Assembly: GCA_963651875.1 (NCBI GenBank) | Contig: CAVJSA010000001.1 | Location: 26,534-90,533, forward strand | Reading direction: 5' to 3' | DNA: 64,000 nucleotides | Source: Lachnospiraceae bacterium | GTDB lineage: Bacteria > Spirochaetota > Spirochaetia > Treponematales > Treponemataceae | Shown: one piece after another, positions 32,979 to 63,321 of the stretch | Layout: every line of letters starts with the position of its first letter | Numbering within the stretch: position 1 is the first letter of the stretch | Made by a program: the position numbers and the translations under genes | Notes under the pieces: generated by a model | What the model was told of the DNA's origin: nothing | The model's database searches: none | Seen by the model: the letters and a program-made list of their open reading frames with translations, nothing else

Positions 32979-33641
32979 TTATTTTTTGAAAAAATTATTT
33001 TTGATAAAATTGTTCTCAGTGATTTTGTTTAATGAAGTTTTTTCAAGTTGCGATATTGAAATCGCTTTTTTTATAATTTCTTTTCGTTCATAGTAGCTGC
33101 CGTTGATATGTCCCCAAAAGCGACCGACACGTGTCGGTTCAAAATTAAAGGACAGGCAAAAGTCATAAAAAATATCTGAAAGATTTTCTTTTTCAATTTT
33201 TGTAATTGTAATTTTTGTTGATGAAAGTTTTTTCCAGATATAATTACAAATGAACAGAGTTTGTTTATCGGTGTAGTTAAGTTTTAAATTTGAAATTATT
33301 TCAATCTGAACTTTTCCTTCAACGATATTTTTTTTCCAGATAAAAAGCGGTATTTTAATTTTAGAATTTCGCCATTTTTCATTGGAAAGGGAACGACAGA
33401 ATGATTTTACTTTTTTAAAAAATTCATTCTGATTTTCTAGTTCAACTGCCTCAAAGAGAATAGTATATTTGGGACTGAACGATACTAAAGAATCAACATA
33501 AAAACATAATCTTTTTATGCTTGAGCGTGAAAGTTTTTTAATTTTTCCTCGTTTGTTGTTTTTTAGGTTTTCCGAATAACCTCCGCCAGTACAAATTTCA
33601 ACAAAATGTTTTGTTGTTAAGTAATAAGAATTTTTTTTCAT
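32979..33641 (-). CDS. degenerate rolling-circle Rep-like protein
   Basis: RGKIKKLSRSSIKRL, FIWKK and GRFWG recall RCR initiators. No HUH or catalytic YxxK seen. AAGGAG RBS. Confidence 0.45.
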   Translation of the reverse strand: MKKNSYYLTTKHFVEICTGGGYSENLKNNKRGKIKKLSRSSIKRLCFYVDSLVSFSPKYTILFEAVELENQNEFFKKVKSFCRSLSNEKWRNSKIKIPLFIWKKNIVEGKVQIEIISNLKLNYTDKQTLFICNYIWKKLSSTKITITKIEKENLSDIFYDFCLSFNFEPTRVGRFWGHINGSYYERKEIIKKAISISQLEKTSLNKITENNFIKNNFFKK

Positions 33642-33694
33642 TTTCTTAAATCTCCTTTAAGAAAATGATTTTTAATAAAGAGATTTTATACGAT

Positions 33695-34582
33695 ATGAAT
33701 TTGCAAAATATTTTTGACACTCATTTTCTTGTAACTCGCTATCTTTGTCCTAATACAAGGCTTACGTATTCTGCTTATGTAAAACGCTTTTTGAATTTTT
33801 TAGAAATTCGCCAGATTGAAATTCAAGCTGTAGATATAAAAGTTCTTATTACTTTTTTTACGACACTGCCAAAAAGTATTAGTTCTAATAGACTTATGAT
33901 TTCTGCATTAAGAAAATTTGGAGAAGTTCTTGTCTTTGAAAAAATTATTTCTGAAAATATTTTTTTGATTTTAGATTTACCAAGACGTGAAAAAACTTTG
34001 GCACGTGTTTATGAAGAAGATGAAGTTAATGCTTTTTTAGATTGTATTGACGATTCAACAATTATTGGTAAGCGTGATAAAGCATTATTTGAATTGATTT
34101 ATTCAGCAGGTCTAAGGGCAAGTGAAGCTGGAGATGTAGAAACGGCAAGCCTGCATCTTTATGATAAATTCTTATTTGTTACAGGCAAAGGAAGAAAAGA
34201 AAGAATGGTTTGTTTTGGTGATATTTGCCGTAATTATTTAGAAGAATATCTGGATTATAGCCGACCATTTTTATTAAAAAATAAAAACTCTAAATATCTT
34301 TTTGTAAGTACACAACAAAATAAATTAAATCGAAATGAAATATGGTATAGATTTAAAAAATACCGAGAAAAGGTAGGTTTGCGCTACGGCACAGTCCATA
34401 CTTTAAGGCATAGTTTTGCAACACATCTTTACAAGCACGGAATGGGATTAGAAAACATAAGTCTTTTGTTAGGACACGAAAATTTAGAAACAACCTGCAT
34501 TTATACCCATTTAGACGGTTCGTATTTAAGAGAAGTTCATAGAAAGTATTTCCCAGGGCGTCCATTAGATGAAGATGAGTAA
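33695..34582 (+). CDS. XerC/XerD-like tyrosine recombinase
   Basis: RDKALFELIYSAGLRASE, GKGRKER, HTLRHSFATH, LLGH, TTCIYTH. Start may instead be 33665. Confidence 0.92.
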   Translation: MNLQNIFDTHFLVTRYLCPNTRLTYSAYVKRFLNFLEIRQIEIQAVDIKVLITFFTTLPKSISSNRLMISALRKFGEVLVFEKIISENIFLILDLPRREKTLARVYEEDEVNAFLDCIDDSTIIGKRDKALFELIYSAGLRASEAGDVETASLHLYDKFLFVTGKGRKERMVCFGDICRNYLEEYLDYSRPFLLKNKNSKYLFVSTQQNKLNRNEIWYRFKKYREKVGLRYGTVHTLRHSFATHLYKHGMGLENISLLLGHENLETTCIYTHLDGSYLREVHRKYFPGRPLDEDE

Positions 34583-34617
34583 GTTTTCGACCGACACGTG
34601 TCGGTCAAAAGAAAATG

Positions 34618-36699
34618 TTATTTATTCTCGAAGATTCTTGCAAGACGATAATTTGAATCCAGTATAAAACGGCATTCGTAAGTTTTACCTTCTTTACTGG
34701 TACATTTTTTTATTCCTGTTTTTTTACCTGTACAAAGATTTTTTACATCGCTTTTTGTAAAACTTGTTCCGCTGGAATTTTTCCAGATTGACGGAAAGTT
34801 ACAACCTTCTTTATATCCACTACAGAAAAAATTTTTTGCAGATTCTCTAATCGGCTTTTGACAAATTGGACAAAGAGTATCATCTGTTTTTATAGCGGAA
34901 AGTTCGATATTAAATTTTTGAGATACTGAAGTTCTTACAAAGTTTTTAATGTCGCTTATAAACGCAACAGGATTATTCTGTAGTTCTTCTTCCCAGTCTG
35001 TTGTTTGCGAAATATCAGCAGTTTTTGCAATCGATGAATTTCTTACTGCACAGAGAAATTCTTTTCCTAATTGAGTACAGATAAAATTCTTTTTTAAAAC
35101 TTCTATATATCCTAATTTAATAAGTTTTGGAATAAATGTATGTCTTGTTGCAGGAGTTCCCAAGCCTGCAAGTTTTGAACCGACACGTGTCGGTTCACTT
35201 TCGTCTGAATCATCTGCGACCGACACGTGTCGGTCGTACTTTGGATTTTCCATAAAAGAAAGAATACTTGCTTCATTGTAATATTTTGGAGGCTTAGTCC
35301 ATTTTTCAACTGTTTGTATGTCTGTTAAAACTAAATTATTCCAGTCGATATTTGAAAATTCCTGCGTTTCTTCCTCAGAATCTTCCTTTTGAACCGACAC
35401 GTGTCGGTCGAACATTACCGGTAAAATTTTAGAAAAGTTTTTATTGTTCCAGCCATATTCTGTAATGTTTTTTCCTATAATTTTAAAAGTATTATTATCA
35501 ACATTAAGAATAACTGTTGTTTTTTGATATTTTTGAGCTGGAAGAAATGCTGTTAAAAAACGTTCGTATATTAGTTGATAGATTTTTTTCTGTTCAGCGC
35601 TTGCTTGTGCAGAAATCTTTTTTAATGGAATTAAAGCGTGGTGAGCTTCAAGTTTTGCATCATTGAAACATCTTTTATTACTTAGAGAAAAATCTTCTAA
35701 TTCTTTTAATTGATTTAATTCGGAATTTTCTGTACAGAACTGATTAAAAATATTTTGACAAAGTTCTGTGTTTTTACTTCCCATAACTCTACTTGGAGTT
35801 CTTGGATAAGAAACACATTTTAATTCTTCATACAGACTTTGAAGAATTTTTAGAGTTTTTGCAGCGTCAAATTCAAAATATTTAAAAGCATCTTTTTGAA
35901 GTTCATTCAAATTATACAGTTGTGGTGGCAGTGTTTCTTTGTTTTCTGTTTGAAAATCCTGTAATTTTGCTTGAGTTCCAATACAGGTTTTTAATGATAA
36001 CTCTAATGAACTGTCTTTGAATTTTGTTCCAGAAAGATTAAAAACAATACCTTTTACTTTTGTGTTTGAACCGACACGTGTCGGTTCAAAATATCCGTAA
36101 TGCTCATAATATTTTTCTGGAACAAAGTTTTTAATTAAATCACACCTTGTTTCAATGGCAGAAAGAATTGCTGTTTGAACTCTGCCGACTGACAATTTTC
36201 TGTTTGCAGCAGAAGAAACGTATCTTGAAAAATTCATACCAACAAGCCAGTCTGCCCTTTGTCTTGCAAATCCTTGAGAAGCAAGTTCATTGTAATTTGT
36301 TAAAGGTTGTGCATTTTGAATTCCAGTTTTTATAACCTCTGGAGTTAATGCTTGTGATACCCAGAATCTTTTTATTTTGGAAAAATCTTTAATACCAGCC
36401 ATAAAAAGACATTCACGAGCGATAATTTCACCTTCTCGGTCAGCGTCAGTTGCAATCAAAATATCTGAATTTGCATTTTCTTTTAGCAACTTAATAACAA
36501 GTTTTGTTTGCTCAACTGTTTTTGGATTGATAGTGTAATCAAATCGTTCTGGAATAATTGGAATTTCAGAGCCGTAATGTTTTGGTTCTTCCAGTTGAAA
36601 AAGATGTCCGATGCAGTAAGAAATTATTAAATTTGGCATTCCTTGCAAGGCATTTTTAAAGTCTTTTGCAACGCTAGGTTTTTCCGCAAGTATAAACAT
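34618..36699 (-). CDS. topB: type IA DNA topoisomerase III (mobile-element type)
   Basis: LAEKPSVA, ATDADREGE, SVGRVQT, SYPRT, AHHALIP, GLGTPATR, C-terminal CPICQ..CSGYKEGC. Confidence 0.92.
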   Translation of the reverse strand: MFILAEKPSVAKDFKNALQGMPNLIISYCIGHLFQLEEPKHYGSEIPIIPERFDYTINPKTVEQTKLVIKLLKENANSDILIATDADREGEIIARECLFMAGIKDFSKIKRFWVSQALTPEVIKTGIQNAQPLTNYNELASQGFARQRADWLVGMNFSRYVSSAANRKLSVGRVQTAILSAIETRCDLIKNFVPEKYYEHYGYFEPTRVGSNTKVKGIVFNLSGTKFKDSSLELSLKTCIGTQAKLQDFQTENKETLPPQLYNLNELQKDAFKYFEFDAAKTLKILQSLYEELKCVSYPRTPSRVMGSKNTELCQNIFNQFCTENSELNQLKELEDFSLSNKRCFNDAKLEAHHALIPLKKISAQASAEQKKIYQLIYERFLTAFLPAQKYQKTTVILNVDNNTFKIIGKNITEYGWNNKNFSKILPVMFDRHVSVQKEDSEEETQEFSNIDWNNLVLTDIQTVEKWTKPPKYYNEASILSFMENPKYDRHVSVADDSDESEPTRVGSKLAGLGTPATRHTFIPKLIKLGYIEVLKKNFICTQLGKEFLCAVRNSSIAKTADISQTTDWEEELQNNPVAFISDIKNFVRTSVSQKFNIELSAIKTDDTLCPICQKPIRESAKNFFCSGYKEGCNFPSIWKNSSGTSFTKSDVKNLCTGKKTGIKKCTSKEGKTYECRFILDSNYRLARIFENK

Positions 36700-36817
36700 T
36701 TTTACCCCTAAACTCGACCGACACGTGTCGGTCGAAACTCATAAAAGAATTTTAGAAAAATAATAAAAACAATGCAAATATAAAATAATAATAACTAAAC
36801 AAAAAAACGTAAAAAAA

Positions 36818-36893
36818 CGCCTAACTCTATGACGCAAGATAAAGGTTTGTCGTACAAACACAAATAATTATATAAGTAATATAGAGTTAGGCG
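36818..36893. other. long-range inverted repeat in the divergent intergenic region
   Basis: CGCCTAACTCTAT (36818-36830) pairs with ATAGAGTTAGGCG (36881-36893) and encloses GTTTGT-CGT-ACAAAC. Confidence 0.6.
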
Positions 36894-37170
36894 GAGCACA
36901 GTGCTTTTTTGCGTGGTATTTTGTATTTTTCTACTATATTATGCTTGTGGTACATAATAAGAATATAGTATAATAAAAACAATACAAAAGACTATTGAAA
37001 TAAAAATGTAAAAAAGTTAATTTTGTATTAAAAGCCAATTAGTCAGATGATAATACCTATTTTTTTTGAAAAATCTATAAAATACAGAATTTTTTTAGGC
37101 TAAAAGCCTAAAATGTCAGATTTTAGTACTTAATTTTGAACCGACACGTGTCGGTCGTAAGGAGTAATAA

Positions 37171-37509
37171 TTGGAAATCGAAACAGGTCGTAATTATTCA
37201 ATGGCAGAAATCTGTTCATTACTGAATTACAACGAAAAAACAATAACTAAGAAAATTAAAAAACTGGAAATAAAGCCTGTTGGAAAAATAGGCAACAAAC
37301 GTGTATTTAGTGCGGAAGATGTCCAGAAAATAGAAAAATATAAACCAATGGCATTTAATCCTAAAACGGAATTTTTTAGAGTAAGTGTTTTAATTGGGAA
37401 TCACTGGATTGTAAAAAATGCAGGATTAACAAAAAAACAGGCTGGGGAGCGTATAAAAAAATTTAAGGCAGACGGTTATTTTGCGCAGTGCCGTAGTTGT
37501 AAAAAATGA
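37171..37509 (+). CDS. small HTH DNA-binding protein (MerR/excisionase-like)
   Basis: YSMAEICSLLNYNEKTI..RVFSAEDV; TTG start after TAAGGAG. Confidence 0.65.
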   Translation: MEIETGRNYSMAEICSLLNYNEKTITKKIKKLEIKPVGKIGNKRVFSAEDVQKIEKYKPMAFNPKTEFFRVSVLIGNHWIVKNAGLTKKQAGERIKKFKADGYFAQCRSCKK

Positions 37510-37542
37510 ACCGACACGTGTCGGTCGTAAGGGATTAAATAA

Positions 37543-38121
37543 ATGGCAGGCGGATATTTTTCTAAAAACGTTAAAAAGACTTTTGCAGAAGAAATAAAAC
37601 AAAGTAAAAACTTTTTTTATGAATTAAAACTTGGAATCGGAAAATGTGGTTTTCCTGAGTTACCAGAAGTTATTGAATATTTATTTGTGGAAATGGAAAT
37701 TCTGCATAGACAGCGTTCAAGGTTTATGAAAAAGAATAAAGGATTTATAAAACGATTCTTTATAAAGTATGACAATTTAACTGATATGTACGAACCTTAT
37801 TTTAATTTTCTTTTACTTTCTAATAAAACAAAAGAAAACTCAGAAATTTTTAAACTTCATTTACAAAATTATCATCAATGGCATAATGTCTGGTGCTTGA
37901 TTCATAAAAATTTTGATGATGTTGTAGTAAAACTTGAACCACTTGAAAATGAAAATGCAGAAACAATTATAAATGACTTTTTTAAGCAGCCGACAATCGA
38001 AGAAACTCCAATGCTTGGTGAAGAACAACAAAAAGAAATTCTTAAAAATCACAGGACTGTTTCTTTAGGTGGCATTTTTAAGGAAATCAAGAACCGACAC
38101 GTGTCGGTCGTAAGGGATTAA
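37543..38121 (+). CDS. Rep_1-like protein lacking the HUH motif, paralogue 1
   Basis: GFIKRF...YEPYFNFLL in place of HPHFH; RTVSLGGIFKEIK matches the Rep_1 C-terminal motif. Confidence 0.5.
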   Translation: MAGGYFSKNVKKTFAEEIKQSKNFFYELKLGIGKCGFPELPEVIEYLFVEMEILHRQRSRFMKKNKGFIKRFFIKYDNLTDMYEPYFNFLLLSNKTKENSEIFKLHLQNYHQWHNVWCLIHKNFDDVVVKLEPLENENAETIINDFFKQPTIEETPMLGEEQQKEILKNHRTVSLGGIFKEIKNRHVSVVRD

Positions 38122-38125
38122 AAAA

Positions 38126-38701
38126 GTGGCAGGCGGATATTTTTCTAAAGAATTAAAAAAATCTTTTGCCAAAAAAATAAAAACAAGTGAAAACTTTTTT
38201 TGCAAAATAAAACTTTCGATTGGACTGTGTGATTTTGTTGAATTACAAACGGTTTGCAAATATTTGTTCGGTATAAATGAACTTCTTGATAAAAAGAAAT
38301 TTTACTTTATTAGTGGACAAAGTTTTATTAAGAGATTTTTTATTCTCTATGACAAAATGACAGGAATGTTTGAACCGTGTTTTATTCTTCTTTTACTTTC
38401 TACTAAAAGCAGGATAAAAAGCGAAATATATAAAATTCGTGTAAGTATTTATATTCGCTATCTTAGTTTATGGTGCAGGTTGAATAAAAGTTTTTATGAA
38501 AACTCAGTTGTTGTTGACCAATTAGAAAACGGAATGGCAGAAGAAATTATCAATGAATTTTTAAAAAAAACAACAATCGAAGAAAATTCAATGATTGATG
38601 AAGAAACCTTAAAAACTAATTGCAAAAATTATCCTAGCGTTACATTGACAGGAAGTTTTAAAAGTATAAAACAAAGATACTTGTCAGCGGTTGAACGATA
38701 G
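38126..38701 (+). CDS. Rep_1-like protein lacking the HUH motif, paralogue 2
   Basis: GTG start, identical MAGGYFSK, colinear similarity to 37543-38121. Confidence 0.5.
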   Translation: MAGGYFSKELKKSFAKKIKTSENFFCKIKLSIGLCDFVELQTVCKYLFGINELLDKKKFYFISGQSFIKRFFILYDKMTGMFEPCFILLLLSTKSRIKSEIYKIRVSIYIRYLSLWCRLNKSFYENSVVVDQLENGMAEEIINEFLKKTTIEENSMIDEETLKTNCKNYPSVTLTGSFKSIKQRYLSAVER

Positions 38702-38794
38702 AAAATGTTCGACCGACACGTGTCGGTCGAAAGTAAGTGAGTTTTGTAATTTTGCCCCCGATTGTATTCAATTTTACAGCAGCAAAAAAGAGCC

Positions 38795-38849
38795 AATGGC
38801 GAGTTAGGACAAGTTAGAGCGACAAAATGGCAAATTAGGACGAGTTAGA
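38795..38849 (+). repeat. 24-bp direct repeat just upstream of the relaxase (candidate oriT or operator)
   Basis: AATGGCGAGTTAGGACAAGTTAGA versus AATGGCAAATTAGGACGAGTTAGA, 21/24 identical. Confidence 0.6.
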
Positions 38850-38869
38850 AAAAAAAGGAAGAAATTATT

Positions 38870-40054
38870 ATGTTGTCAAAAAATATATTTACAGATAAAT
38901 GGGAAGAAGATTTATACAAGATTAAAAAAGCGTATAAAAAAGACGATGTAAGTTATCTTAATAACCTGTTAAAAAAACTCAGCCGACCGACACGTGTCGG
39001 TCGTAAAGGTTCTAAAAGTTTTTCTGGCGGTAACGCAGTCTTTTTTGAACCGACACGTGTCGGTTCAATGGATTCTAAACAGCAACGTGTAACTTTTAAA
39101 ATGACTTATAGTAATTCAAAGCAAGCTCACGACAAATATCTTAATACCTATATGACGCAACAAAACAGAGAAGAAGTAACTCAAAAACCTGTTCTTTTTG
39201 GTACAGAGGTAGATGTTTATAATGAAAATCAAGTTGATAACCATTTTAAGTGTATTATTTCCCCAGAGAATCAAAACGCAGACCTTGAGATTTTGACAAG
39301 AACGTTTGTAAAACATCTTGAAGCCCAGACTGGATATAAATTTTACTGGCAGGCAGCTATTCATAGCAACACTGAACATAAGCACGCTCATTTATGTATA
39401 AACGGAAAAGACCAGAACGGAAAGGACGTTTATTTTCAAAAAGAAATGATAAAAAGAACAATGCGAGAAACTCTTTCAAATATTGCAACAAAACTGTTAG
39501 GCAATAGAACGGAAGCAGAAATTCAAGCTGGAAGAAAAAATCTTATAACAGCTATGCGCTGGACTGAACTTGATGAACGTATAAAGAATTCTGCATCGTT
39601 GTTTTTTCCTACATTAGATTCTGTATTACAAAATCGTATTGCGTTTTTAATCCAGAATAATCTTGCATCTAAAAATGATGAAAATTGTTCTTTAAGGGAA
39701 GAGTGGGAAGACGTATTAAAAGCAACTGGACGGTACAATACTTATTTTGAAAAATATCAAAAATTGAATGGAAATCTTGAACTTTATTCTGGTGGTAGCG
39801 TTATTGGAAAAGTTGTTGATTTAATCAGTTTTGATAAAGATGAAAGTTGGAATGATGCTTTAATAATCAATGATGGACAGAAAAATATTTATGTTCCAAT
39901 TTATCAGCTGCAAAAAGAAGATTTAATCGGCAAAACTGTGTCTGTAAAAGGTGGAAACAGGAAACTTGCCAGACAGATAAAAAATTCTGATATTAGAGTT
40001 TTAGACGAAAATAAAAATATTCAAAATCTTAAAAACAAGAATATAAAAAGATAA
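38870..40054 (+). CDS. MOBP/VirD2-like relaxase
   Basis: QRVTFK, HFKCIISPE and AAIHSNTEHKHAHLCING (H...HxH). Confidence 0.85.
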   Translation: MLSKNIFTDKWEEDLYKIKKAYKKDDVSYLNNLLKKLSRPTRVGRKGSKSFSGGNAVFFEPTRVGSMDSKQQRVTFKMTYSNSKQAHDKYLNTYMTQQNREEVTQKPVLFGTEVDVYNENQVDNHFKCIISPENQNADLEILTRTFVKHLEAQTGYKFYWQAAIHSNTEHKHAHLCINGKDQNGKDVYFQKEMIKRTMRETLSNIATKLLGNRTEAEIQAGRKNLITAMRWTELDERIKNSASLFFPTLDSVLQNRIAFLIQNNLASKNDENCSLREEWEDVLKATGRYNTYFEKYQKLNGNLELYSGGSVIGKVVDLISFDKDESWNDALIINDGQKNIYVPIYQLQKEDLIGKTVSVKGGNRKLARQIKNSDIRVLDENKNIQNLKNKNIKR

Positions 40055-40090
40055 TTGAACCGACACGTGTCGGTCGTAAGGAAAAGAAAA

Positions 40091-40321
40091 ATGCTTATTA
40101 AAATTATATCAATCGGCTTTTTATGTATTGCAATACTTTTGCTGTTTGTTTTTTTAATTCACTTAATAAGAAACAGGGTGCACTGGACTTTTTTAATAGG
40201 CACTTTATTTTTTATGGGAGCTTTTTCTTACATTGCATATACAATTTATAAAACACCAGAATCTGAAATTTACAGAAATGTAAATGTCGCTTCGTTTATA
40301 AATGAAAATGCAGAAAATTAA
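40091..40321 (+). CDS. small two-TM membrane protein
   Basis: ATG 40091 after TAAGGA; flanked by two palindrome copies. Confidence 0.6.
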   Translation: MLIKIISIGFLCIAILLLFVFLIHLIRNRVHWTFLIGTLFFMGAFSYIAYTIYKTPESEIYRNVNVASFINENAEN

Positions 40322-40447
40322 CAAATGAACCGACACGTGTCGGTCGGATTATCCGTAATGTTCTGTATTTATATTATTTTGACATTGTACAATATTTAAT
40401 ATAAACTCTTTTATAAGTATCTGCTTCGCCCAATTTAGAGGATACTT

Positions 40448-41152: not shown

Positions 41153-42247
41153 ATGAAAAAAAGTATATTTACATTAAAAATAGTACCACTGATTTTTTTA
41201 GTATCAGCGTGTGTAAGTTCAAAAGACCTTGAAAAAGACGTAAACGAAAATGATTTTTTTGAAGATACAAAAAATATTGAAGAAGAAGAACAGAAAAACG
41301 AAAGTGAATTAAAGGGCATTTATGTACAAGAAGAACTAAAAGTTCAAGATGTGGAAAACACAGTCGTTTATATTGATAGACCTGTTTACGTACCAGAACA
41401 GAAAAATGTTCCAGAATTAGAACGCAATAATAAAAGTGGCTATGAAGCTGCCGTTGAAAGTCAAAAACGTGCTACAAAATCACCAGAGCGTTACAAGGAA
41501 GGAACTTTTTTTTATACATATAGTGAAGATTTAGTTTTTGAAGTTTATGCACAGCCATATCATTTAACGGACATTATTCTTGAAGCTGGTGAAATTGTTA
41601 ATGCAACTCCGTTACTTTCTGAAGGTGAAGAAGTCTGGGAATTAACAGCAGGTGTTGCTAAAGACCCATTAACTCAACAAGACATTCAGCATATTTTTAT
41701 TAAACCTGCGTATTCAAAATTGGATTCAAGCCTTGTAATTATTACAAATCGCAGAGTTTACCATTTTAGGATAAGGTCGTTTGCAGACACTCATATGGCA
41801 ATGGTCAAATTCACCTATCCAAACAAATTCAATCAGTGGGCAGGGAAAAACTCAAGTTTAAATTCTTCTGTTGAAAGTGATTTTGTACGCATAACAAATC
41901 CAGAACTTCTTTCGTTTGACTATAAGATGTCTTATTCAATGTGGAAAAAGCCAGAGTTTTTACCGACACGTGTCTATGATGACGGACAGTCAACTTATAT
42001 TCAAGTTACAGATTCTGTCTTGCAGAAAAAACTTCCTGTACTTTTTAACGAGAAAAACGAAATTATAAATTACAGCGTAAAGCGTAATATTTTTGTAATT
42101 CCTCGTTTAATTAACAAAGTTACTTTAAGGCTTGGTAAAGAAAAGGTAACTATTCAAAAGAAAAAAACAAAAGCAGTTGTAGTTGAACAAAAAGAGGAAA
42201 GTACAAATGGAAGACCAGACACAAAAACAACAGCAAGCGGAAAATAA
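41153..42247 (+). CDS. trbG: T4SS TrbG/VirB9, lipoprotein-like
   Basis: TDIILEAGE, HIFIKP, ITNRRVYH, PTRVYDDG; LVSAC lipobox. Confidence 0.85.
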   Translation: MKKSIFTLKIVPLIFLVSACVSSKDLEKDVNENDFFEDTKNIEEEEQKNESELKGIYVQEELKVQDVENTVVYIDRPVYVPEQKNVPELERNNKSGYEAAVESQKRATKSPERYKEGTFFYTYSEDLVFEVYAQPYHLTDIILEAGEIVNATPLLSEGEEVWELTAGVAKDPLTQQDIQHIFIKPAYSKLDSSLVIITNRRVYHFRIRSFADTHMAMVKFTYPNKFNQWAGKNSSLNSSVESDFVRITNPELLSFDYKMSYSMWKKPEFLPTRVYDDGQSTYIQVTDSVLQKKLPVLFNEKNEIINYSVKRNIFVIPRLINKVTLRLGKEKVTIQKKKTKAVVVEQKEESTNGRPDTKTTASGK

Positions 42248-43658: not shown

Positions 43659-43664
43659 AAAAGT

Positions 43665-52042: not shown

Positions 52043-52073
52043 CGTTCTTCTCCTGTCTGAACCCTCCTTATAA

Positions 52074-52128: not shown

Positions 52129-52171
52129 TAATTTTTATCAGATTATTGAAATTAGTACAAATAATTATATA

Positions 52172-54418: not shown

Positions 54419-54437
54419 AGAAGCATAAGGATAAAAA

Positions 54438-54872
54438 ATGAACAATAAAAAACCAGACAGCGCAAAATTTTCTGTAAGTCAGAAAGTGCGCTTAACAGAA
54501 TATCAAAATAAAATTCTCAAAAGCAAAGCTCTTGAACAGAATACTACTGTAAGCGAAATCTTACGGACAGCAGTAACTAATTATATTGACCGCAATATGA
54601 CAGATACAGAAATTCTTTACGCAACTCTTACAGAGCAATCAAGAAAAATCCGCTATCTGGAAAATAAAGTTGAAGTATCGGCAATTCTTTTAACACAGAT
54701 GTTTAAATATTTTATAAAAGCACTGCCTGTTAATTCTGTAAATTCAAATGAATTTGTAGAAACCAAATTTGAAGATTTCAAAAAAGATTGTGCTCGGACG
54801 GTAAAAGAATATCACGGTGGATTCCTTGAAAGTTTTATTTTAGATATGTACGAAAAAGGTGTAGAAGAATAA
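54438..54872 (+). CDS. CopG/RHH-like protein
   Basis: KVRLT..NTTVSEILRTAV; position between traG and trbB. Confidence 0.6.
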   Translation: MNNKKPDSAKFSVSQKVRLTEYQNKILKSKALEQNTTVSEILRTAVTNYIDRNMTDTEILYATLTEQSRKIRYLENKVEVSAILLTQMFKYFIKALPVNSVNSNEFVETKFEDFKKDCARTVKEYHGGFLESFILDMYEKGVEE

Positions 54873-54876
54873 AGCA

Positions 54877-55860: not shown

Positions 55861-56006
55861 GTTTTATTGAATAAAAAAGACTTGCAAGGAGGTAAAGAAA
55901 AATAAAATCAAAGTGATTTTGCGTGTTTTTTTATTGGAATATTGTTTTTAGTAAAATCACTTTTTTTGAACCATTGTTTTTTATAAGAAATATTTTTTTT
56001 AAGTTA

Positions 56007-56026
56007 CGACCGACACGTGTCGGTTG
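56007..56026. repeat. isolated palindrome copy directly before the pilin RBS
   Basis: TTACGACCGACACGTGTCGGTTGTAAGGAG...ATG. Confidence 0.95.
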
Positions 56027-56040
56027 TAAGGAGATTATTT

Positions 56041-56397: not shown

Positions 56398-56401
56398 AAA
56401 T

Positions 56402-56665
56402 ATGACAGACGAAACAACTATCTATGATTATGCAGAACCTGTTTACAGAGTTTTGTTAAGCACAGACCAGCTTCTTGGAATTGGAACAATACCAGTAATG
56501 GCAATAGTTTTAATAACGATTCTTCTTATTAACCTCGTCAGTTTATGGTGTTTCCCAGTCGGAGTTGTTCTGCTTGCTATTGCAAAGTTTGTATGCAAAA
56601 AAGACCCATATATGTTGACGATTATTTTTAACAGAATTTTTTTACCTTCTATTTGGAGAGCATAA
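56402..56665 (+). CDS. trbD: TrbD/VirB3
   Basis: PVYRVL..LLGI, two TM helices, KKDP. Confidence 0.8.
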   Translation: MTDETTIYDYAEPVYRVLLSTDQLLGIGTIPVMAIVLITILLINLVSLWCFPVGVVLLAIAKFVCKKDPYMLTIIFNRIFLPSIWRA

Positions 56666-59260
56666 ATGAAAGCAAGATTTCCAAAGCTGGATTTATTTAA
56701 TGTGTGTAAGGAACTGATGAATCAGCTTAAATATACAACTCCTTACTCGTTAATAATACAGCCTAGCGTCTGTATGCTAAAAAATGGCGCAATAATGACT
56801 ACTTATCAAGTTGAATATCCAGACTTGGAATCTTCTTCTGGTTCATCTATTGCTAATATGGCTGAACTTTTTAACAGAAGCATTATGACTTTAGCGCAGG
56901 ATGAAGGTTGGGCAATCTTTTTTGATGCACGCAGATACAAAACAAAAGACTATCCAGCAGGCAATTATGACAATTTGCTAGGCTGGCTCATTGACCAGAA
57001 ACGTGCAGAAAATTACGAAAAATTCGGTGAACATTTTACTACAGATTATTTCATTACTTTTGTTTATCAGTTGCCAAGCGATGCAGAAGATAAAATTACT
57101 GGAACTTTTATAAAAAAGAACAATAAACCACAACAGGGGCAGCAGCCAGCTTTTGGAAAAACAGGTGTCTTAAATGTTGTTTCTAAGGAAATTGAGCAAT
57201 TCCTTGATGAAGTTGAAAAAGTAATGGGTACTGTAGGAACTAAAATCTGGAATCACAGACTTGATGACTCTCAGTTATTCACCTACATAAAACAAAACGT
57301 AAGTATGGAACAGCAGGAACTTATTTATCCAGACGGAACTTTTTTCTTTCTTGATAATTTTATCTGCGACCAAGACGTGCACACTACAATGCCCCTAAAA
57401 ATCGGTAAACAGTATGTTTGTGTTTTATCGGTAATGGATTTTCCTATGAAAACCTATCCTGCAATTTTTGATCGCCTAAACCGAACAATGCAGGAATACC
57501 GCTGGACTACAAGATACATTCCTTTGTCTAAAGAATCTTCAACAAAAGAAGCCGACAAATACCAGAAAAAAATGTACTCAAGCAGAAAAAGTTTAGGCAC
57601 ACTTCTTACAGAAATGGCTGCCAACGTTGAAATTGACCGTGAAAATCAAGGCGCAATCGAAATGGAAAGCGAAGCTGCACGGATTCAAGGTGATATTGCT
57701 TTAGGTGAATACACACTCGGCTATTACACAAGCAATATTATGTGCTGGGATTCTAATCTAAAAGTTGTAAAAGAAAAGACAAGAAAATTGCAGCAGATTG
57801 TTCGTTCCTGTGGTTTTTCAACAAAAGAAGAAACTTGGAACAATGTAGAAGCGTGGGAAGGTATGATGGCTGGCAATGTTTACGCAAACATAAGACGACC
57901 TTTAATTTCTACACGCAACTTGTCGCATATCATTCCTTTAAGTTCAGCGTGGGAAGGTATGCTTTACAACGATTTTACGCAAGAAACCTGCGGAAGTGCA
58001 GTTCCGCTTTTAATCTGTTCAACAAGTTACGGAACACCATTTTTTCTAAATCTTAATGTTAGAGATGTCGGACACACTTTCGTGTTCGGCCCGACAGGTG
58101 CTGGTAAATCAACGCTTTTAGCTTTAATGATGGCGCAAGCACTTAAATACAAAGATGCAAATATCATTTGTATTGATAAACAGCTTTCAAGCAGGGCTGT
58201 AATGGTTGCAGGCGGTGGTGTTTACGTTGAACCTGCAAAAGATGATGTTGCTTTTCAACCGCTGTCTGAATTACTAAATCCAGAAGAATGTAGCGAAAGT
58301 GAATATCGGGAAAGCATTATGTGGTGTCAGCAATTTATTGAAGGCTTGCTTGCTCAGCAAAATATCGAAACTACACCACAGATGAGTAAGGCAATCAATG
58401 AAACTCTAGTTCTTTTATCCCAGAAAGACGATTCAATGCACGATTTAACTTCGTTTCAAGGTTATGCAAATTACACGGATTCCCAAGGCAATAATACAAT
58501 AAGAATCGGACTTGACCCTTATTGTCGTGGTGGAGCTTTTGGCGCAATTTTTGACGCAGACAAAACAACTCTTAATTTGTCAAAACTTATGACAATCGAA
58601 ATGGGAAGTTTAATGCGCCTAAGTGAAAAAGCAGTTGCCCCAGCTTTAATGTACATTTTCCGTTACCTTGAAAAATTATGGACAGTACCGCACGGAGAAC
58701 ATCAGCCTTTAACTTTTTTGTTTCTTGACGAAGCGTGGCTTTATTTACAGCACCCGATTTTTGCAGGCTTTTTACAGGAATGGTTGAGAACTTTACGAAA
58801 GAAAAAGGTTTTCTGTATTTTTGCAACGCAGGAAGTAAGTGCAGCTTCAAAAAGTTCATTGCGAGATACGATTGTTCAGCAGTGTCTTACTAAAATTTAT
58901 CTTGCAGATGAATCTGCATTATCACTTGCAGAAAGTTATTCTGATTTTGGACTTACCGATAGTGAAATTTCAGCTTTAAGCCAAGCAACTATGAAACGTG
59001 ATTATTACTTTAAGAATCCGAACGGTTGCCGTATGTTTACACTTGATTTAGACCCATTCCAGCTTGCTCTTATTTCAAGCGACCACGAACTGCTTGATAA
59101 TCTTGAAAACAGATACGGCAGGAATACAACAGAACCGCTTGCTTTTGAATTGCTTGACGCAACAGCCGAAAAATACAGACAGATTGGCAAAGACAGTCGC
59201 TGTTTAGACTACAAAAAATATAAAGATTATATTCACGAACTTGCAAGCAAAGGAGTTTAA
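56666..59260 (+). CDS. trbE: T4SS ATPase TrbE/VirB4
   Basis: DVGHTFVFGPTGAGKS, FLDEAW, EWLRTLRKK, FATQ. Confidence 0.95.
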   Translation: MKARFPKLDLFNVCKELMNQLKYTTPYSLIIQPSVCMLKNGAIMTTYQVEYPDLESSSGSSIANMAELFNRSIMTLAQDEGWAIFFDARRYKTKDYPAGNYDNLLGWLIDQKRAENYEKFGEHFTTDYFITFVYQLPSDAEDKITGTFIKKNNKPQQGQQPAFGKTGVLNVVSKEIEQFLDEVEKVMGTVGTKIWNHRLDDSQLFTYIKQNVSMEQQELIYPDGTFFFLDNFICDQDVHTTMPLKIGKQYVCVLSVMDFPMKTYPAIFDRLNRTMQEYRWTTRYIPLSKESSTKEADKYQKKMYSSRKSLGTLLTEMAANVEIDRENQGAIEMESEAARIQGDIALGEYTLGYYTSNIMCWDSNLKVVKEKTRKLQQIVRSCGFSTKEETWNNVEAWEGMMAGNVYANIRRPLISTRNLSHIIPLSSAWEGMLYNDFTQETCGSAVPLLICSTSYGTPFFLNLNVRDVGHTFVFGPTGAGKSTLLALMMAQALKYKDANIICIDKQLSSRAVMVAGGGVYVEPAKDDVAFQPLSELLNPEECSESEYRESIMWCQQFIEGLLAQQNIETTPQMSKAINETLVLLSQKDDSMHDLTSFQGYANYTDSQGNNTIRIGLDPYCRGGAFGAIFDADKTTLNLSKLMTIEMGSLMRLSEKAVAPALMYIFRYLEKLWTVPHGEHQPLTFLFLDEAWLYLQHPIFAGFLQEWLRTLRKKKVFCIFATQEVSAASKSSLRDTIVQQCLTKIYLADESALSLAESYSDFGLTDSEISALSQATMKRDYYFKNPNGCRMFTLDLDPFQLALISSDHELLDNLENRYGRNTTEPLAFELLDATAEKYRQIGKDSRCLDYKKYKDYIHELASKGV

Positions 59261-59262
59261 AA

Positions 59263-60180
59263 ATGAAAAAGACAATAAGTTTAGTTCTTTTAAGTCTTGG
59301 GCTTTTTACAAAAGCGTTTTGTGGTGGTTATCCAGTATTTGACGTGTCAAATTGGCTTCAAGGACTTGATACGTTTTATACCACTTACGATATGTTAATG
59401 AATACCGTAACCCAGATTGAAAATCAGTATAAACAGATTCAACAGGCTGTCGAAAATGCAAAATCTATTGATTGGGATAATATTGAATTTGAAGGCGGAT
59501 TCGATATTAGAGATGATATTAAAAAAGTAAACAGAAGAATAAACCGAAGTTTAACGCAGGCAAATCGAATAAAAGACGCATTAACACAGGATACACTTCA
59601 AGTAGGTGATAATCGTTATTCTGTTGCCGACCTTTGCGGAAAAGGCGACCCAGACAAAAATCTTGCAAGAATTGGTGGTGAATATATCGGTTTTTTAACA
59701 GCCAATGCTCAAAAAACATTAAACGATATGGAAAAAGGTTTAACAAAAAAGCAAAAAGAAGCAATCTGGCAAAAATATGGTATTTCACCAAAGAACTATC
59801 TTTTAGTAGACCAGACAAAAAATTTTTTTAAGAGTGAAGCAGAAAAATTGATTCAAAAAGTTCAGCCAGCTATTACAGAGTTAGAACAGCAGGAAGAAGA
59901 AGCAGAAGATAGTGCACTTGAACAGGCTGTAAAATCACAGACAGATTCAAACGGAAACGTTACAGAAGGTTCCGATAGAGAAGGTACAAGAATTCTTTTA
60001 AGCCGCTTAAAAGAAAAATTTAGTCAACTTATAGACGATTTTAATGCTGGAGTTGCAATGTATTGCTCAAAAGTAATGGCAGACGAAGCACAAAAAGAAA
60101 CAGAAAAAGACGCAGCGGCATCGGCAGCAGAAACTAGCAATAATCAGCAAAGTAAAGTTGGTTCTAACTTTAAAAAATAA
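59263..60180 (+). CDS. trbJ: TrbJ/VirB5-like protein
   Basis: Signal peptide followed by PVFDVSN..QIENQ. Confidence 0.7.
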   Translation: MKKTISLVLLSLGLFTKAFCGGYPVFDVSNWLQGLDTFYTTYDMLMNTVTQIENQYKQIQQAVENAKSIDWDNIEFEGGFDIRDDIKKVNRRINRSLTQANRIKDALTQDTLQVGDNRYSVADLCGKGDPDKNLARIGGEYIGFLTANAQKTLNDMEKGLTKKQKEAIWQKYGISPKNYLLVDQTKNFFKSEAEKLIQKVQPAITELEQQEEEAEDSALEQAVKSQTDSNGNVTEGSDREGTRILLSRLKEKFSQLIDDFNAGVAMYCSKVMADEAQKETEKDAAASAAETSNNQQSKVGSNFKK

Positions 60181-60189
60181 GGAATTTTT

Positions 60190-62103
60190 ATGTCTTGGGT
60201 AGATTCTCCAGTATTATCGGCTTTTGAATATTTTAGCGGTGTAATGGCTACTTGTTATAATTGGGCGGTTAAATACGCTGCACTTTTTGGAACAATCGGA
60301 CTTGTCTGGCTGGCACTAAAACTTATTCTTAATAGAGAACAGGTAAAAAATGCGTGGTGGGATATTTTTTTTAAGTGGCTTGGTTTTGTTCTTGCAATGA
60401 CATTTTATCCAATGCTGTGTTTTGGTATGTCCAGTATCGGACACGAAATCGGTTTAACTGCAGGTGCTGGAAAAACAGTTGTTATAAGCGAACTAAAAAA
60501 ATTAAAGTCAGCGTGTGTAAAAGATTTACAACTTCAAAAAAAATGGGCAGAAGACCTTGTTGATGATATAGCAACTTCTGTAAATGATTTTTCTTTTAAT
60601 GCAAAATTTGAAAATACTTATAATTATGAAGATTTTTTAAATTCTCTAAAGTCTGAAGTTAAAAGCTATAACTGGAGCTGGAGTCAAAGTTCTGAAAAAA
60701 AAACTATTGAATCAAAAATAAAACAATACAGAGAAAATTCTCCAGATTTTAATGCACATAGTGCTGCAACTTTGGCAATTCTGAATAAAATTCTTGTTGA
60801 ACGTAATCTTGACGGAACAAGCGGTGATGATTTAACAAGTTCTTATATTGACCTTGATATTTTCTTAAAAGACGCAGACGGAAATGAAACAAATTATATT
60901 TCTGCAGCGGCACTTTTGCGCCTTGTTGCCTTAACAGCAACAGTTATGCAGGAAAAAACTGAAGTAATATATAACAATGTAAGCGATTCTGTAGCCGCAG
61001 AAGATATTGGTTTTATAAAAAGCGTAGCTGGAAACATTAAAAATTATTTCAATAAATTTCTTTCAATCTTAGAATGTTTTTTTTGTATTATAATTTTATT
61101 TTCTGCAACGGTTTTTTGTGCTATTCAATATGAAATGACGATTATTGAATACATCATTGTTACAGGACTTTTTGCAGTTTTTATGCCGTTAATGCTTTTT
61201 GATGGAACAAAGGATATTCCTAAAAAGTTTGTACCTGTATTAACAGCGTTTTTAATGAAAATAATAGTAATGACCTTATGTCTTATGTTTGTTTTTTACA
61301 TTATGGTTCAAATGTGTGTAAACGAAATGAAATATGACGGTGGTATGAATTTAACAAAAATTCTTGAAGTTCTTCTTTATAGTTTTCTTTGCTTTATTTT
61401 AACACAAAATGCACCAAAAATTGCTCAGACAATTATGACAGGTCAGCCACAGTTAAGTATGGGAGAAGCAATGCAGGCTGTTGGAAGTATGGGAGCTGGA
61501 GTGGCACTTGGTGTAAAAGGTGCAAAATTAGGTAAAAAGGCTGGTGTTGGTGCTGCAAAATTTACTGGTGCGGTTGGCAGGAAAATTGGAAACGGAATTG
61601 GTAGCGGAATAACTAAATTTGGGCAAATAAAGAGTGCTGTAAAAGGTGCTAAACAAGGCGTAAGAGATGTTGTAAGTCAAAATAAAGGTACATTTAGTGC
61701 AAAAGAAGCTAAAAAACTTGAAAACAGGGCTGCAAGAAGGGCGCTTGGGCGTGAATTAGTATTAGACCCATTAAACAATATGAAAAACGGAGTTGCTGGC
61801 GGAATAAATAACTTCTTCCATAATAATTCTAATAAAACTGCTGGTTCTGGTGGTGGAATGTCAAAAAGTGAAAGAAATCCTTATTCTAATCCAAACAGGA
61901 CTTTTAAAACTTCAAGAACAGCAGACGGAAAAAATGAAAAATTTTTGGATTTTAGTAAAAGACGAGCTAATGAAAGTTCAGAAAGGGCTAAAAATAATGC
62001 TACCAATTATGCAAATAAAGCTGTTGAAAAAAAACAGGAAGAAAAGAAACAATCAGATATTTCCGACCTTGCAACAGACAACAGAGCTTATGGCGAAGAT
62101 TAG
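60190..62103 (+). CDS. trbL: TrbL/VirB6
   Basis: Multi-TM core, IIEYII, APKIAQTIMTGQPQL, Gly/Ala-rich tail. Confidence 0.8.
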   Translation: MSWVDSPVLSAFEYFSGVMATCYNWAVKYAALFGTIGLVWLALKLILNREQVKNAWWDIFFKWLGFVLAMTFYPMLCFGMSSIGHEIGLTAGAGKTVVISELKKLKSACVKDLQLQKKWAEDLVDDIATSVNDFSFNAKFENTYNYEDFLNSLKSEVKSYNWSWSQSSEKKTIESKIKQYRENSPDFNAHSAATLAILNKILVERNLDGTSGDDLTSSYIDLDIFLKDADGNETNYISAAALLRLVALTATVMQEKTEVIYNNVSDSVAAEDIGFIKSVAGNIKNYFNKFLSILECFFCIIILFSATVFCAIQYEMTIIEYIIVTGLFAVFMPLMLFDGTKDIPKKFVPVLTAFLMKIIVMTLCLMFVFYIMVQMCVNEMKYDGGMNLTKILEVLLYSFLCFILTQNAPKIAQTIMTGQPQLSMGEAMQAVGSMGAGVALGVKGAKLGKKAGVGAAKFTGAVGRKIGNGIGSGITKFGQIKSAVKGAKQGVRDVVSQNKGTFSAKEAKKLENRAARRALGRELVLDPLNNMKNGVAGGINNFFHNNSNKTAGSGGGMSKSERNPYSNPNRTFKTSRTADGKNEKFLDFSKRRANESSERAKNNATNYANKAVEKKQEEKKQSDISDLATDNRAYGED

Positions 62104-62110
62104 TTAAAGC

Positions 62111-62150
62111 AAAAAAAAAGCTATGCTCTATTTTGAACATAGCTTTTTTT
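62111..62150. terminator. bidirectional intrinsic terminator
   Basis: A9-GCTATG...CATAGC-T7 between convergent genes. Confidence 0.8.
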
Positions 62151-62154
62151 GTTT

Positions 62155-62379
62155 TTATTTACCCCTCTTATCATTCACAATACTCAAAATTATTCCAATT
62201 ATAATCGTCAAAACAAAAAGTACGCCAATTCCTATTAACCCAATTTTTGCTATATGAATTACATCTTGAAAAAAGGTCGTATGATAAACGAGATGATTAT
62301 AAAATTTTATAACGCATCTTGCCCCAAAAACAAAAGCACAAAAAATCATTATAAGATAGCTACCAATTATCATTAACAT
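62155..62379 (-). CDS. small two-TM membrane protein
   Basis: 74 aa, GGAGG RBS, own promoter and terminator. Confidence 0.7.
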   Translation of the reverse strand: MLMIIGSYLIMIFCAFVFGARCVIKFYNHLVYHTTFFQDVIHIAKIGLIGIGVLFVLTIIIGIILSIVNDKRGK

Positions 62380-62410
62380 ATAAAACCTCCAGAAGAATTA
62401 TTTCTTACAT

Positions 62411-62465
62411 TTAAGAGCATATTACCTTATCTTGAAAAAAGCAACTATTTTTTCTAGTTTTTTTA
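62411..62465 (-). promoter_or_regulatory. sigma70-type promoter, copy 2 of the duplicated block
   Basis: TTGCTT-17 nt-TATGCT; near-identical to 52074-52128. Confidence 0.7.
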
Positions 62466-63200
62466 CATAAATATTTGCTGAATTGCTGTTAAAACTGTGC
62501 TTATTGTTTTTTCATCAAGACTTTCAATTAGTGCTGGAGGATTTTTATAGCAATATGTATTTATCGAATGATAGTTTATGTAGCCTTTTGTCGATAAATT
62601 TTCTAGTTTTAAGCCTTTTTCACAAGTTTGTGTAATATTGCAGCCTATAAAACTGTGTTCTTTTTCGTTTTGAATTTTGTTTGAAAGTACAAATACGCAG
62701 GTGTTATCAATACTTACAATATCACCTCGTTTTGCAACATAATTTTGTAAAACAGGAATATCACCGTCTGTAAAAAAATCTATGGGATTTACTTCCAGAC
62801 ACGCTTTTTTTATAAGTTCAACTGTTGGTTTTGCCCGATATGCAACAAAAATATTATAAGCCGACAGTTCAGAAAGTCCGTATTTTTCGCCAGTTGCCCT
62901 ATAGTCAAATTTATGCTGTTTTACAAATTTGCATATATTTTCAGCATTCCACTGTGGCACAAGTTGTGGAGGATAGGGAAGTTGTTCATCTGTAAAAAAC
63001 AGCCATTCTATCGGTGCTATTAAATGACATACAGAACTTATTATTCTGTAGGAAGGAAGTTGCTCTCCAAATGCAAGGCGATACATTGCCGAATGAGTAA
63101 GTCCATTGGCAGCGCACCATTTTCTTAACTCCCGATTTTCAATAAGTTTAATGATTTTTTGTTGTGCATACGTAATGCGAGAAGGAACAGGTTTTAACAT
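62463..63200 (-). CDS. tandem HTH-like domains fused to a PemK/MazF-like domain
   Basis: Two similar units (GLT/GLS..Y..P(S/T)..I..P(I)(E/D)(W/F)..T(D)); C-terminal KRGDIV..VLSN..N..IGCNIT. Confidence 0.55.
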   Translation of the reverse strand: MLKPVPSRITYAQQKIIKLIENRELRKWCAANGLTHSAMYRLAFGEQLPSYRIISSVCHLIAPIEWLFFTDEQLPYPPQLVPQWNAENICKFVKQHKFDYRATGEKYGLSELSAYNIFVAYRAKPTVELIKKACLEVNPIDFFTDGDIPVLQNYVAKRGDIVSIDNTCVFVLSNKIQNEKEHSFIGCNITQTCEKGLKLENLSTKGYINYHSINTYCYKNPPALIESLDEKTISTVLTAIQQIFM

Positions 63201-63301
63201 AGTTTTATCCCAAAATTCTTATTATGAAACAGCAAAATGCTGTTAAAAAAAAACAAAAAGATTTTAATACATTATTTTCGATAAAACAATATTGCAAAAT
63301 T

Positions 63302-63321
63302 GAACCGACACGTGTCGGTCG
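63302..63321. repeat. isolated palindrome copy
   Basis: GAACCGACACGTGTCGGTCG between the PilZ gene and the HTH-PemK gene. Confidence 0.95.

Follow-up and report, generated by a model that had tools for sequence, protein, structure and literature searches.

A 16-bp palindrome, ACCGACACGTGTCGGT, is repeated without variation in a conjugative element of ~60 kb that carries a type IV secretion system (T4SS), and all of its copies in the genome lie within that element. The stretch of DNA that we analysed, hereafter the window, is 64,000 nucleotides long and covers C1:26534-90533, where C1 is contig CAVJSA010000001.1 of assembly GCA_963651875.1, deposited as a Lachnospiraceae bacterium and placed in the Treponemataceae. 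Related Treponema elements were observed to carry different palindromes of the same form in the same kinds of places. We propose, with a probability of about 0.55, that the motif is a duplex dyad site for a putative element-encoded symmetric binder, and that the resulting nucleoprotein complex would co-ordinate or repress the early genes and those close to the origin of transfer (oriT).

An exact-match count returned 17 copies of the palindrome in the window, where 0.02 are expected by chance (100 dinucleotide shuffles; largest count 1). Fifteen of these are packed into the 7,222 bp from 33123 to 40344, and an exact search of window positions 1-33122 returned no copy. The whole genome (2,654,083 bp, 162 contigs) contains 22 exact copies and not one that differs at a single position; all 22 are on C1 between 59656 and 116372, five of them past the window end (C1 100974, 110720, 112677, 113659 and 116357). 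The 12-bp core of the motif likewise has 22 of its 22 occurrences within the element, while 27 of the 136 plain CACGTG hexamers of the genome fall there. The motif is element-specific and invariant. A preliminary description of this DNA, made from its letters alone, had reported 17 copies with an identical core, fifteen of them in 7.2 kb and none in ~32.8 kb of host DNA, and had called the motif element-specific; these counts agree with ours, and the genome-wide count bears out the last point. Every start is 2 nt further right than the one it gave. A full-text search of the published literature for the 16-, 14- and 12-mers returned a single, unrelated paper, and the literature on Treponema integrative and conjugative elements or T4SSs yielded no account of such elements. 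Single copies of the 16-mer are scattered over many unrelated GC-rich genomes, at the level expected by chance for 596 Gb, and occur also in a few metagenome-assembled genomes of Clostridia, Eubacteriales or Oscillospiraceae from gut and rumen.

Of 400 other genomes of the family, 22 contain the exact motif, with 1-14 clustered copies each. They comprise 21 of the 238 genomes from the same genus and one of seven from another; the remaining 22 genera gave none. The record of T. socranskii ATCC 35535 holds five copies within 1.3 kb. The loci of relatives were gathered around topoisomerase homologues; the element itself and the fetched loci together hold 89 exact copies. The topoisomerases that host this invariant motif are only 55-63% identical, and the flanks of orthologous copies have strongly diverged. 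Other relatives have different 16-bp dyads in the same kinds of places, among them ACCGACAGCTGTCGGT, AGCGTCACGTGACGCT, AGCGCAACGTTGCGCT and AGCGAAACGTTTCGCT, and those of the forms AGCGCC-NNNN-GGCGCT, AGCGCA-GTTC-TGCGCT, AGCGCA-GATC-TGCGCT and GCCGTA-AYRT-TACGGC, with GTCGCA, GTCGTA and AGTGCC as further arms. We counted 43 locus-level dyad families with at least three copies, on 10 distinct 6-bp arms and with 270 sites, although sites and loci are related by descent and such counts overstate their independence. Individual classes can be narrow: next to class A, that of our element, the class B dyad is limited to contig C19 of genome G427 (nine copies) and two copies in G466, and class C to contig C18 of G231 (eight copies). 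In a control comparison, such a family was seen in 19 of the 32 closer loci (L236-L267) and in none of 48 loci whose topoisomerases are distant (27-35% identical, L268-L315). Repeated dyads were not found in loci L017, L020 and L032, in the T. succinifaciens plasmid pTRESU01 or in several metagenome loci, and a search for single inverted repeats upstream of the relaxase in motif-less relatives gave nothing convincing. The elements are mosaic: between loci L003 and L009 VirB8 is 97%, the relaxase 83% and the topoisomerase only 58% identical, which indicates that modules recombine between lineages with a common class A site.

How these sites change can be followed in the topoisomerase III gene (34618..36699, minus strand), which hosts four copies in frame. 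These are at 35179..35194 (amino acid 502, read EPTRVG), 35219..35234 (amino acid 489, DRHVSV), 35393..35408 (amino acid 431, DRHVSV) and 36070..36085 (amino acid 205, EPTRVG), and in comparison with E. coli Topo III the in-gene copies are located in variable or inserted stretches. Throughout the element at least 8 of the 22 copies are in frame within open reading frames (ORFs), always read as (E/R)PTRVG or (D/N)RHVSV. On aligning 25 topoisomerases, we observed that the same two loops hold the class-specific motif in seven classes (the loop at amino acid 431) and six classes (that at 205), including elements whose topoisomerase is only 35-40% identical to our own. The loop peptides are EPTRVGS/DRHVSV in class A, RPTAVGS/DRQLSV in class B, and GAKRFA/SETFRS, AQRC/ATLR, RRNVTA and LAPNGA in other classes; in relatives without the motif the residues at these places are unrelated. 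Since the peptides change with the class, selection acts on the DNA and not on the peptide. Class A is found across three topoisomerase sub-clades (56-63% identity), class B arose within one, and a sister clade at 62-69% identity has three different classes. Half-changed intermediates such as ACAGGTGT also occur. The sites thus switch class at orthologous places, i.e. they evolve in place, and the co-varying palindromes that the preliminary description had proposed to look for in related Treponema elements do exist.

The form of the sites bears on what might read them. Positions 7 and 10 are complementary in 255 of the 270 sites (94%), in 122 of 136 when class A is left out and in 28 of 35 distinct arm-plus-centre types, and the pair differs among classes (A..T or G..C). 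This makes the arms 7 bp long and leaves a centre of 2 bp that could not form a loop; the central pair, positions 8 and 9, is complementary in 185 of the 270 sites. In class A the centre is invariant in the 88 sites tallied, position -1 is a purine and position +1 a pyrimidine in all 88, and 90% of half-sites have G or C at position ±2. The -1/+1 combinations are A-T in 23, A.C in 37, G.T in 17 and G-C in 11 sites (odds ratio 0.40, p 0.066), the non-pairing A.C being the commonest, and the two sides of the 22-bp extension match in 16 of the 88 sites, where 15.4 would be expected. As the two flanks are independent, the half-sites are constrained alike without selection for pairing. Taken together, the symmetry and the flank constraint favour a putative two-fold symmetric protein site on duplex DNA over a hairpin.

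In its left part the element encodes, in this order, a tyrosine integrase, topoisomerase III, an HTH_17 protein, two tandem Rep proteins that have lost their catalytic motif (dead Reps) and a relaxase; it continues with VirB8/9/10, a 2006-amino-acid Ig-like protein, VirD4, VirB11 and VirB2/3/4/6. Past the window follow two ArdC-N proteins, a 5277-amino-acid polyvalent protein, two SSB proteins and an exonuclease, and then an HTH_36/zinc-ribbon protein, a 354-amino-acid ParB/Srx-HTH protein and, at the contig end, ParA. Eight copies lie between a stop codon, often a TGA that abuts the motif, and the next Shine-Dalgarno sequence. They are 36717..36732, 18 nt upstream of the topoisomerase start codon (minus strand) with the Shine-Dalgarno next to it; 37140..37155, immediately 5' of that of the HTH_17 gene (37171..37509, plus strand, excisionase-like); 37510..37525, which abuts the HTH_17 TGA and is 18 nt upstream of the dead-Rep A start; 38093..38108, which lies within the final codons of dead-Rep A (NRHVSV) and 18 nt ahead of dead-Rep B; 39049..39064, 3 nt ahead of the ATG at 39068; 40059..40074, which comes right after the relaxase stop and precedes the Shine-Dalgarno of a small ORF for a membrane protein; 56009..56024, immediately 5' of that of virB2, at the head of the virB2-B3-B4-B6 run; and the copy at C1:116357. 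The ATG at 39068 is the probable start of the MobA/VirD2-type relaxase, whose ORF spans 38870..40054 (plus strand), so that the copy at 38986..39001 is either upstream of this start or in an N-terminal extension of the ORF. Another in-frame copy, 33123..33138, is inside a 220-amino-acid minus-strand ORF, where it is read EPTRVG. The copies found neither in ORFs nor at stop-to-Shine-Dalgarno spots are intergenic: 34590..34605 lies between the convergent stops of the integrase (33665..34582, plus strand) and topoisomerase genes, 38712..38727 is 11 nt past the dead-Rep B stop, 40329..40344 is 35 bp upstream of a promoter-like TTGACA-17-TAAACT ahead of virB8, and 63304..63319 is between two minus-strand genes without assigned function. 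A degenerate copy with two mismatches in one arm was seen inside virB9 (41962..41977).

Among the proteins of the element, the candidate reader is the catalytically dead Rep_1/HUH-fold protein from the middle of the cluster, a tentative choice that we would put somewhat below even odds. The leading candidate is dead-Rep A (37543..38121, plus strand), which is Rep_1-like with the HUH motif replaced and has a predicted HUH/origin-binding-domain-like fold; dead-Rep B (38126..38701, plus strand) is its tandem paralogue, 48% identical. Using an iterative profile, we found a dead Rep in every locus of classes A, B, C, F and D12 that spans the topoisomerase-relaxase interval. Each of the 16 dead-Rep genes in motif-bearing loci is accompanied by a class-specific copy, either no more than 40 nt ahead of its start or at its 3' end or shortly behind it. 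In 18 aligned members of the family the HUH position holds a conserved Pro-x-Phe, with no conserved His or Tyr. The AlphaFold model (pLDDT 85) gave a VIA-align list dominated by HUH Rep domains with Z scores of at most 7.4, among them MVM NS1 (7.3), SIRV ORF119 (7.2), AAV5 Rep (6.3) and the RepB OBD (6.2); Foldseek against the PDB returned nothing at E 0.001 or better, and tblastn against plasmids no match. A small island of ~5 kb in genome G067 has five motif copies together with an integrase, a CI-like repressor, a RelE-like pair and a dead Rep, and only the dead Rep (E 3e-5 against Rep_1, below the curated cut-off) and an XRE-type helix-turn-helix (HTH) protein are in common with the elements. 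At the 3' end of this island's dead-Rep gene (L008 7515-7725) there are tandem 98-bp duplications, each with a motif copy. Plasmid pTRESU01 has the backbone, with no dead Rep and no repeated palindromes. Of five proteins compared pairwise across classes the dead Rep evolves fastest, although this is not diagnostic. Nearly all motif-bearing loci have in common only the topoisomerase and the relaxase, both of which are present in motif-less loci as well, and no class A-specific protein stands out when the whole element is compared with two of class A, one of class B and one of class C. Other candidates were discarded as general binders: the HTH_17 protein, which the preliminary description had listed for binding tests as the HTH at 37171, the integrase and the 220-amino-acid ORF are each found only in this element among 33 loci compared, and the beta-strand residues of a NikA-like ribbon-helix-helix (RHH) protein (54438-54872) do not follow the class.

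On the mechanism that we propose, the motif would be the core of an 18-bp dyad site, R-ACCGACA-CG-TGTCGGT-Y, read on double-stranded DNA by a two-fold symmetric, probably dimeric, element-encoded protein. Each Treponema element lineage would hold a private version of the site, the sites evolving in place together with the binder. They are spaced every ~0.04-1.5 kb across 7 kb around the relaxase gene (the presumed oriT), the topoisomerase and the dead Reps. Most of them fall in tolerant protein loops or in the gap from a stop codon to the following ribosome-binding site, and a few extra sites are at the operon heads of virB8, virB2 and exonuclease-SSB. Binding might then build one nucleoprotein complex over the region of transfer initiation and early entry, which would throttle or co-ordinate the genes there as a roadblock or as an operator in 5' leaders. 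Private specificity could prevent cross-talk among related co-resident elements, and small mobilizable islands could plug into the system by copying the sites. A bolder version, which we regard as somewhat unlikely, is a system of private addresses in which a dead rolling-circle Rep, reduced to its origin-binding domain, reads the dense 18-bp dyad array over the oriT-proximal, early-entry region, the in-frame sites of the element's own topoisomerase gene included. If this were true, binder and sites would diversify jointly into many specificity classes, related elements in one host would avoid interference, islands would parasitise the system through copied sites and a dead Rep, and a new centromere-like, silencing or relaxosome scaffold would have arisen from an HUH domain and not from ParB, RHH or HTH proteins. 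Several observations weigh against the duplex-site proposal and its candidate reader. A scan with consensus promoters gave 24 promoter-like sites against 36.5 in shuffles, hence the placement as operators is putative. In several classes the 2-4 nt at the centre differ among the sites of one element, TTCG included, and constancy of the arm around a changing centre would mark a hairpin as well; the 16-mer is foldable (DNA -4.7, RNA -7.9 kcal/mol), and eight distinct copies are terminator-like, mostly on the strand antisense to genes. The structural matches of the dead Rep are all middling (Z below 8), loci L020 and L244 hold a dead Rep without a repeated dyad, and distant clades (L022-L027, L033, L036 and several metagenome loci) hold dyads with no detectable dead Rep.

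Some of these points could also be read as a hairpin in single-stranded DNA, either in the transferred strand in the recipient or extruded, that is recognised by an HUH-fold protein such as the dead Rep or the relaxase, by a primase or by SSB and, for example, primes or organises complementary-strand synthesis of the first-entering region. The GC-rich arm of 6-7 bp, the centres that vary within one element (ATTT/AATT/AAAT, TTCG, GTTC), the stability of stem plus flanks (28-mer DNA -11.5 kcal/mol, z -4.6) and a copy spacing of the order of Okazaki fragments would suit such a role, as would the position of the cluster amid genes that handle single-stranded DNA (relaxase, topoisomerase III and dead HUH Rep, with the SSB and exonuclease genes further along); HUH proteins do bind hairpins, and RAYT on a REP hairpin is among the fold matches (Z 6.0). 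Asymmetric centres are weakly biased to one strand within an element (5/5, 5/6, 5/7) and of mixed orientation relative to gene strand. We nevertheless consider this reading rather unlikely, because positions 7 and 10 stay complementary where a 2-nt loop would not let them pair, the flanks are two-fold symmetric without pairing, the class A centre does not vary, and the copies are crowded into 7 kb and not spread over the 60 kb that need copying. The same symmetry arguments apply to an element acting in RNA, be it an intercistronic hairpin that stabilises or processes mRNA, a translational operator or a terminator of antisense transcription. Here the eight copies of 22 between a stop codon and the next Shine-Dalgarno, with counterparts in other classes, the RNA folding energy (-16.1 kcal/mol for the 28-mer) and the 10 of 12 terminator-like matches in 32.5-41 kb that are motif copies (3.4 expected) speak for it; the conserved in-frame copies in topoisomerase loops and other ORFs, a sequence that is itself invariant beyond what pairing asks, and an Rfam scan of 32000-64000 in which no family reached the gathering score speak against it, and the T-rich tails are on the antisense strand and common anyway in DNA of 31% GC. 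An RNA role is therefore very improbable in our estimate. Still further down we would place a target for an element-encoded nuclease or methyltransferase (restriction-like, homing-like or for epigenetic self-marking) or a selfish REP-like repeat spread by an HUH enzyme, which seems to us scarcely credible. The centres do resemble typical 4-6-bp restriction palindromes (ACGT, AGCT, AATT, GATC), ACGT centres vary to ATGT/ACAT at 28 sites on seven arms, and Mrr_cat proteins adjoin the topoisomerase in six long AGCGCC-class loci, with a C5-methylase fragment in L018; no such enzyme was detected near the cluster in our own element, however, and the copies are orthologous and ancient and not recent insertions, show no target duplications, have two flank states that amount to palindromic classes, and accompany a Rep that is catalytically dead.

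The preliminary description had favoured the recognition site of an element-encoded dimeric protein, possibly a ParB/KorB-like clamp, while seeing no ParB in the window. The window indeed has none, but the rest of the element, where it suggested searching, does encode a ParA and ParB/Srx-type pair at the end of the same contig (C1 117455-119370, 26 kb past the window). ParA (L002:14532-15368; AAA_31, 3e-31) is followed by the 354-amino-acid ParB/Srx-HTH protein (P0001), whose homologues (42-48% identity) carry PF02195 while P0001 itself scores E 0.11. On this reading the copies would be parS- or OB-like loading sites for a ParB/KorB CTP clamp, with P0001 as the binder, that couples segregation or silencing to transfer. 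A 16-bp palindrome that is clustered and tolerated within genes is parS-like, as is the CACGTG centre of classes A and C; in genome G234 the ParA and ParB-like genes are within 6 kb of the cluster with one copy between them, and circularisation of the element would bring the pair next to the cluster at the junction. The distribution of the protein is less favourable. ParB-like homologues are present in 15 of 15 further genomes tested and in L017 (G210), and four genomes (G381, G259, G287 and G210) keep one although their topoisomerase loci have no repeated palindrome; the repeated dyad is absent from 12 of the 15 loci fetched around ParB-like genes, and in G067, with its five copies, this query found no homologue. 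The HTH of the ParB-like protein is not in step with the class: the helix ERAKFV is common to the class B and class C proteins, and our own HTH is closest to that of motif-less L017, from a genome (G210) in which no class A copy was found anywhere. The CTP-binding box of ParB is an arginine-rich GERRxR in the N-terminal domain, whereas 15 of 15 aligned P0001 homologues have an invariant L-I-D-G-Y-T-R in its place, and the sole solved relatives are two 'ParB domain protein nuclease' sequences (5k5a, 5k5d; E about 1e-3). As the HTH is not tied to the class and homologues occur in motif-less relatives too, the clamp is unsupported and we judge it improbable, while the symmetry of the site agrees with the first part of that earlier claim. 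An inverted repeat GGAACT..AGTTCC with ~120-bp spacing was seen just downstream of the ParB-like genes in two loci (L038 7789/7909; L042 8958/9078/9126) and is a candidate for the true centromere of the ParA/ParB-like pair.

Some further features of the element and its relatives were noted. The backbone is known as a plasmid too, the relaxase of T. succinifaciens pTRESU01 being 50% identical to ours. Two ~24-bp direct repeats (ATGGCRARTTAGGACRAGTTAGA) at 38785-38850, between the copy at 38712 and the relaxase ORF, could serve oriT as a site for an accessory protein. Adjoining the element on its left, at 32567-32845, a DUF6361 gene is cut to 92 amino acids (profile positions 16-81 of 388), and its remaining part was not found anywhere in the genome; it may be the disrupted integration target. 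No tRNA was found at the left junction, and the right end is undefined because the contig stops at ParA. The 5277-amino-acid ORF (C1:93031-108864) combines LPD3, PBECR1, three MuF_C stretches, an Eco57I-type methylase, an SNF2 helicase and a RadC/JAB domain, a polyvalent protein as found on conjugative elements, and carries one in-frame motif copy. In the relatives, the ATGT/ACAT centres (GCCGTA, GTCGTA and GTCGCA classes and others) follow the transition pattern expected from deaminating CpG, and the C5-cytosine methylase fragment of L018 is between dead Rep and topoisomerase. The Mrr_cat proteins of the AGCGCC class are small and of restriction-endonuclease fold (181-188 amino acids in three Pfam-scanned loci); they adjoin the topoisomerase, in place of a dead Rep, in all six long loci (L025, L026, L033, L255, L256 and L259) and also in L258 and L265, with a ResIII helicase and a TraR/DksA-type zinc-finger protein near the gene.

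Repeated operators and centromeres of conjugative elements are known mostly from a handful of proteobacterial plasmids. This spirochaete family offers an unusually clean natural experiment, with at least 10 arm types of one dyad, each private to a lineage, with sites kept at orthologous positions even within a conserved enzyme gene, and with a small island that copies them. A joint change of specificity in a binder and its many dispersed sites becomes directly testable, and identification of the binder would at once provide a collection of orthogonal protein-site pairs. That the obvious candidate, ParB, is probably not the reader directs attention to an unrecognised family of DNA-binding proteins, possibly the dead HUH Rep.

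Several known systems resemble this array in part. With ParB-parS it has in common the 16-bp palindromic form, the CACGTG centre of two classes, the clustering and the tolerance inside genes, and plasmid par systems are known for lineage-specific switches of specificity; it differs in that the cluster is away from parAB in an integrated element, the ParB-like protein has no arginine-rich box, and motif-less relatives keep ParAB. REP sequences with their RAYT (TnpA-REP) are likewise multi-copy, short, GC-rich inverted repeats paired with an HUH-fold protein (4er8, Z 6.0). A REP is an imperfect repeat outside genes, dispersed over the genome, recognised as a hairpin and served by an active HUH-Y1 transposase, whereas our dyads are restricted to one element, invariant, in frame in at least 8 of 22 cases and symmetric to the centre, and the HUH motif is lost. 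Integron attC sites are imperfect, 57-141 bp long, located at cassette 3' ends and used with the integron integrase; here the core is 16-18 bp, copies lie inside the topoisomerase and other genes, and the integrase is unique to the element. Intrinsic terminators have a GC-rich stem and, behind it, a U-run on the transcribed strand; the eight copies that score as terminator-like do so mostly antisense to genes, and a terminator role would not explain the invariance of the sequence. The activator AcaCD is known from sites at promoters only. The G067 island with its five copies is reminiscent of the SGI1-type mobilizable islands without transfer genes of their own, on which excerpts of PMC4605294 and PMC5058578 place the AcaCD boxes of IncC plasmids, as an island that carries a helper's regulator sites; in our case, in contrast, many of the sites lie within genes or between cistrons, and a dead Rep is present on the island as well. 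For the leading regions of enterobacterial plasmids, a passage of PMC13478746 reports no palindrome enrichment. The nearest parallel to the whole arrangement is offered by KorB-OB (with KorA and TrbA) of IncP-1 RK2, in which a short palindrome is repeated over a conjugative backbone, at promoters and elsewhere. RK2 has 12 OB sites. Its KorB is a plasmid protein that reads OB, silences genes and serves partition, and the OB oligonucleotide holds TTTAGCGGCTAAA (PMC11790492, in part). Our element departs from it in that the ParB-family protein does not co-vary with the site, in sites of 16-18 bp that are far denser (15 in 7.2 kb) and in frame within a topoisomerase gene, and in having at least 10 arm types within one genus. 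In R388 (ArdK, StbA-stbDR), repeated operators govern the leading-region and oriT-proximal genes, and the StbA sites next to oriT position the plasmid and restrain transfer; these repeats are short, direct or imperfect, and in few promoters, and we know of no in-gene copies or diversification into classes among them. By analogy, the dyad array would work most like the RK2 KorB-OB regulon or the oriT-proximal repeats of R388.

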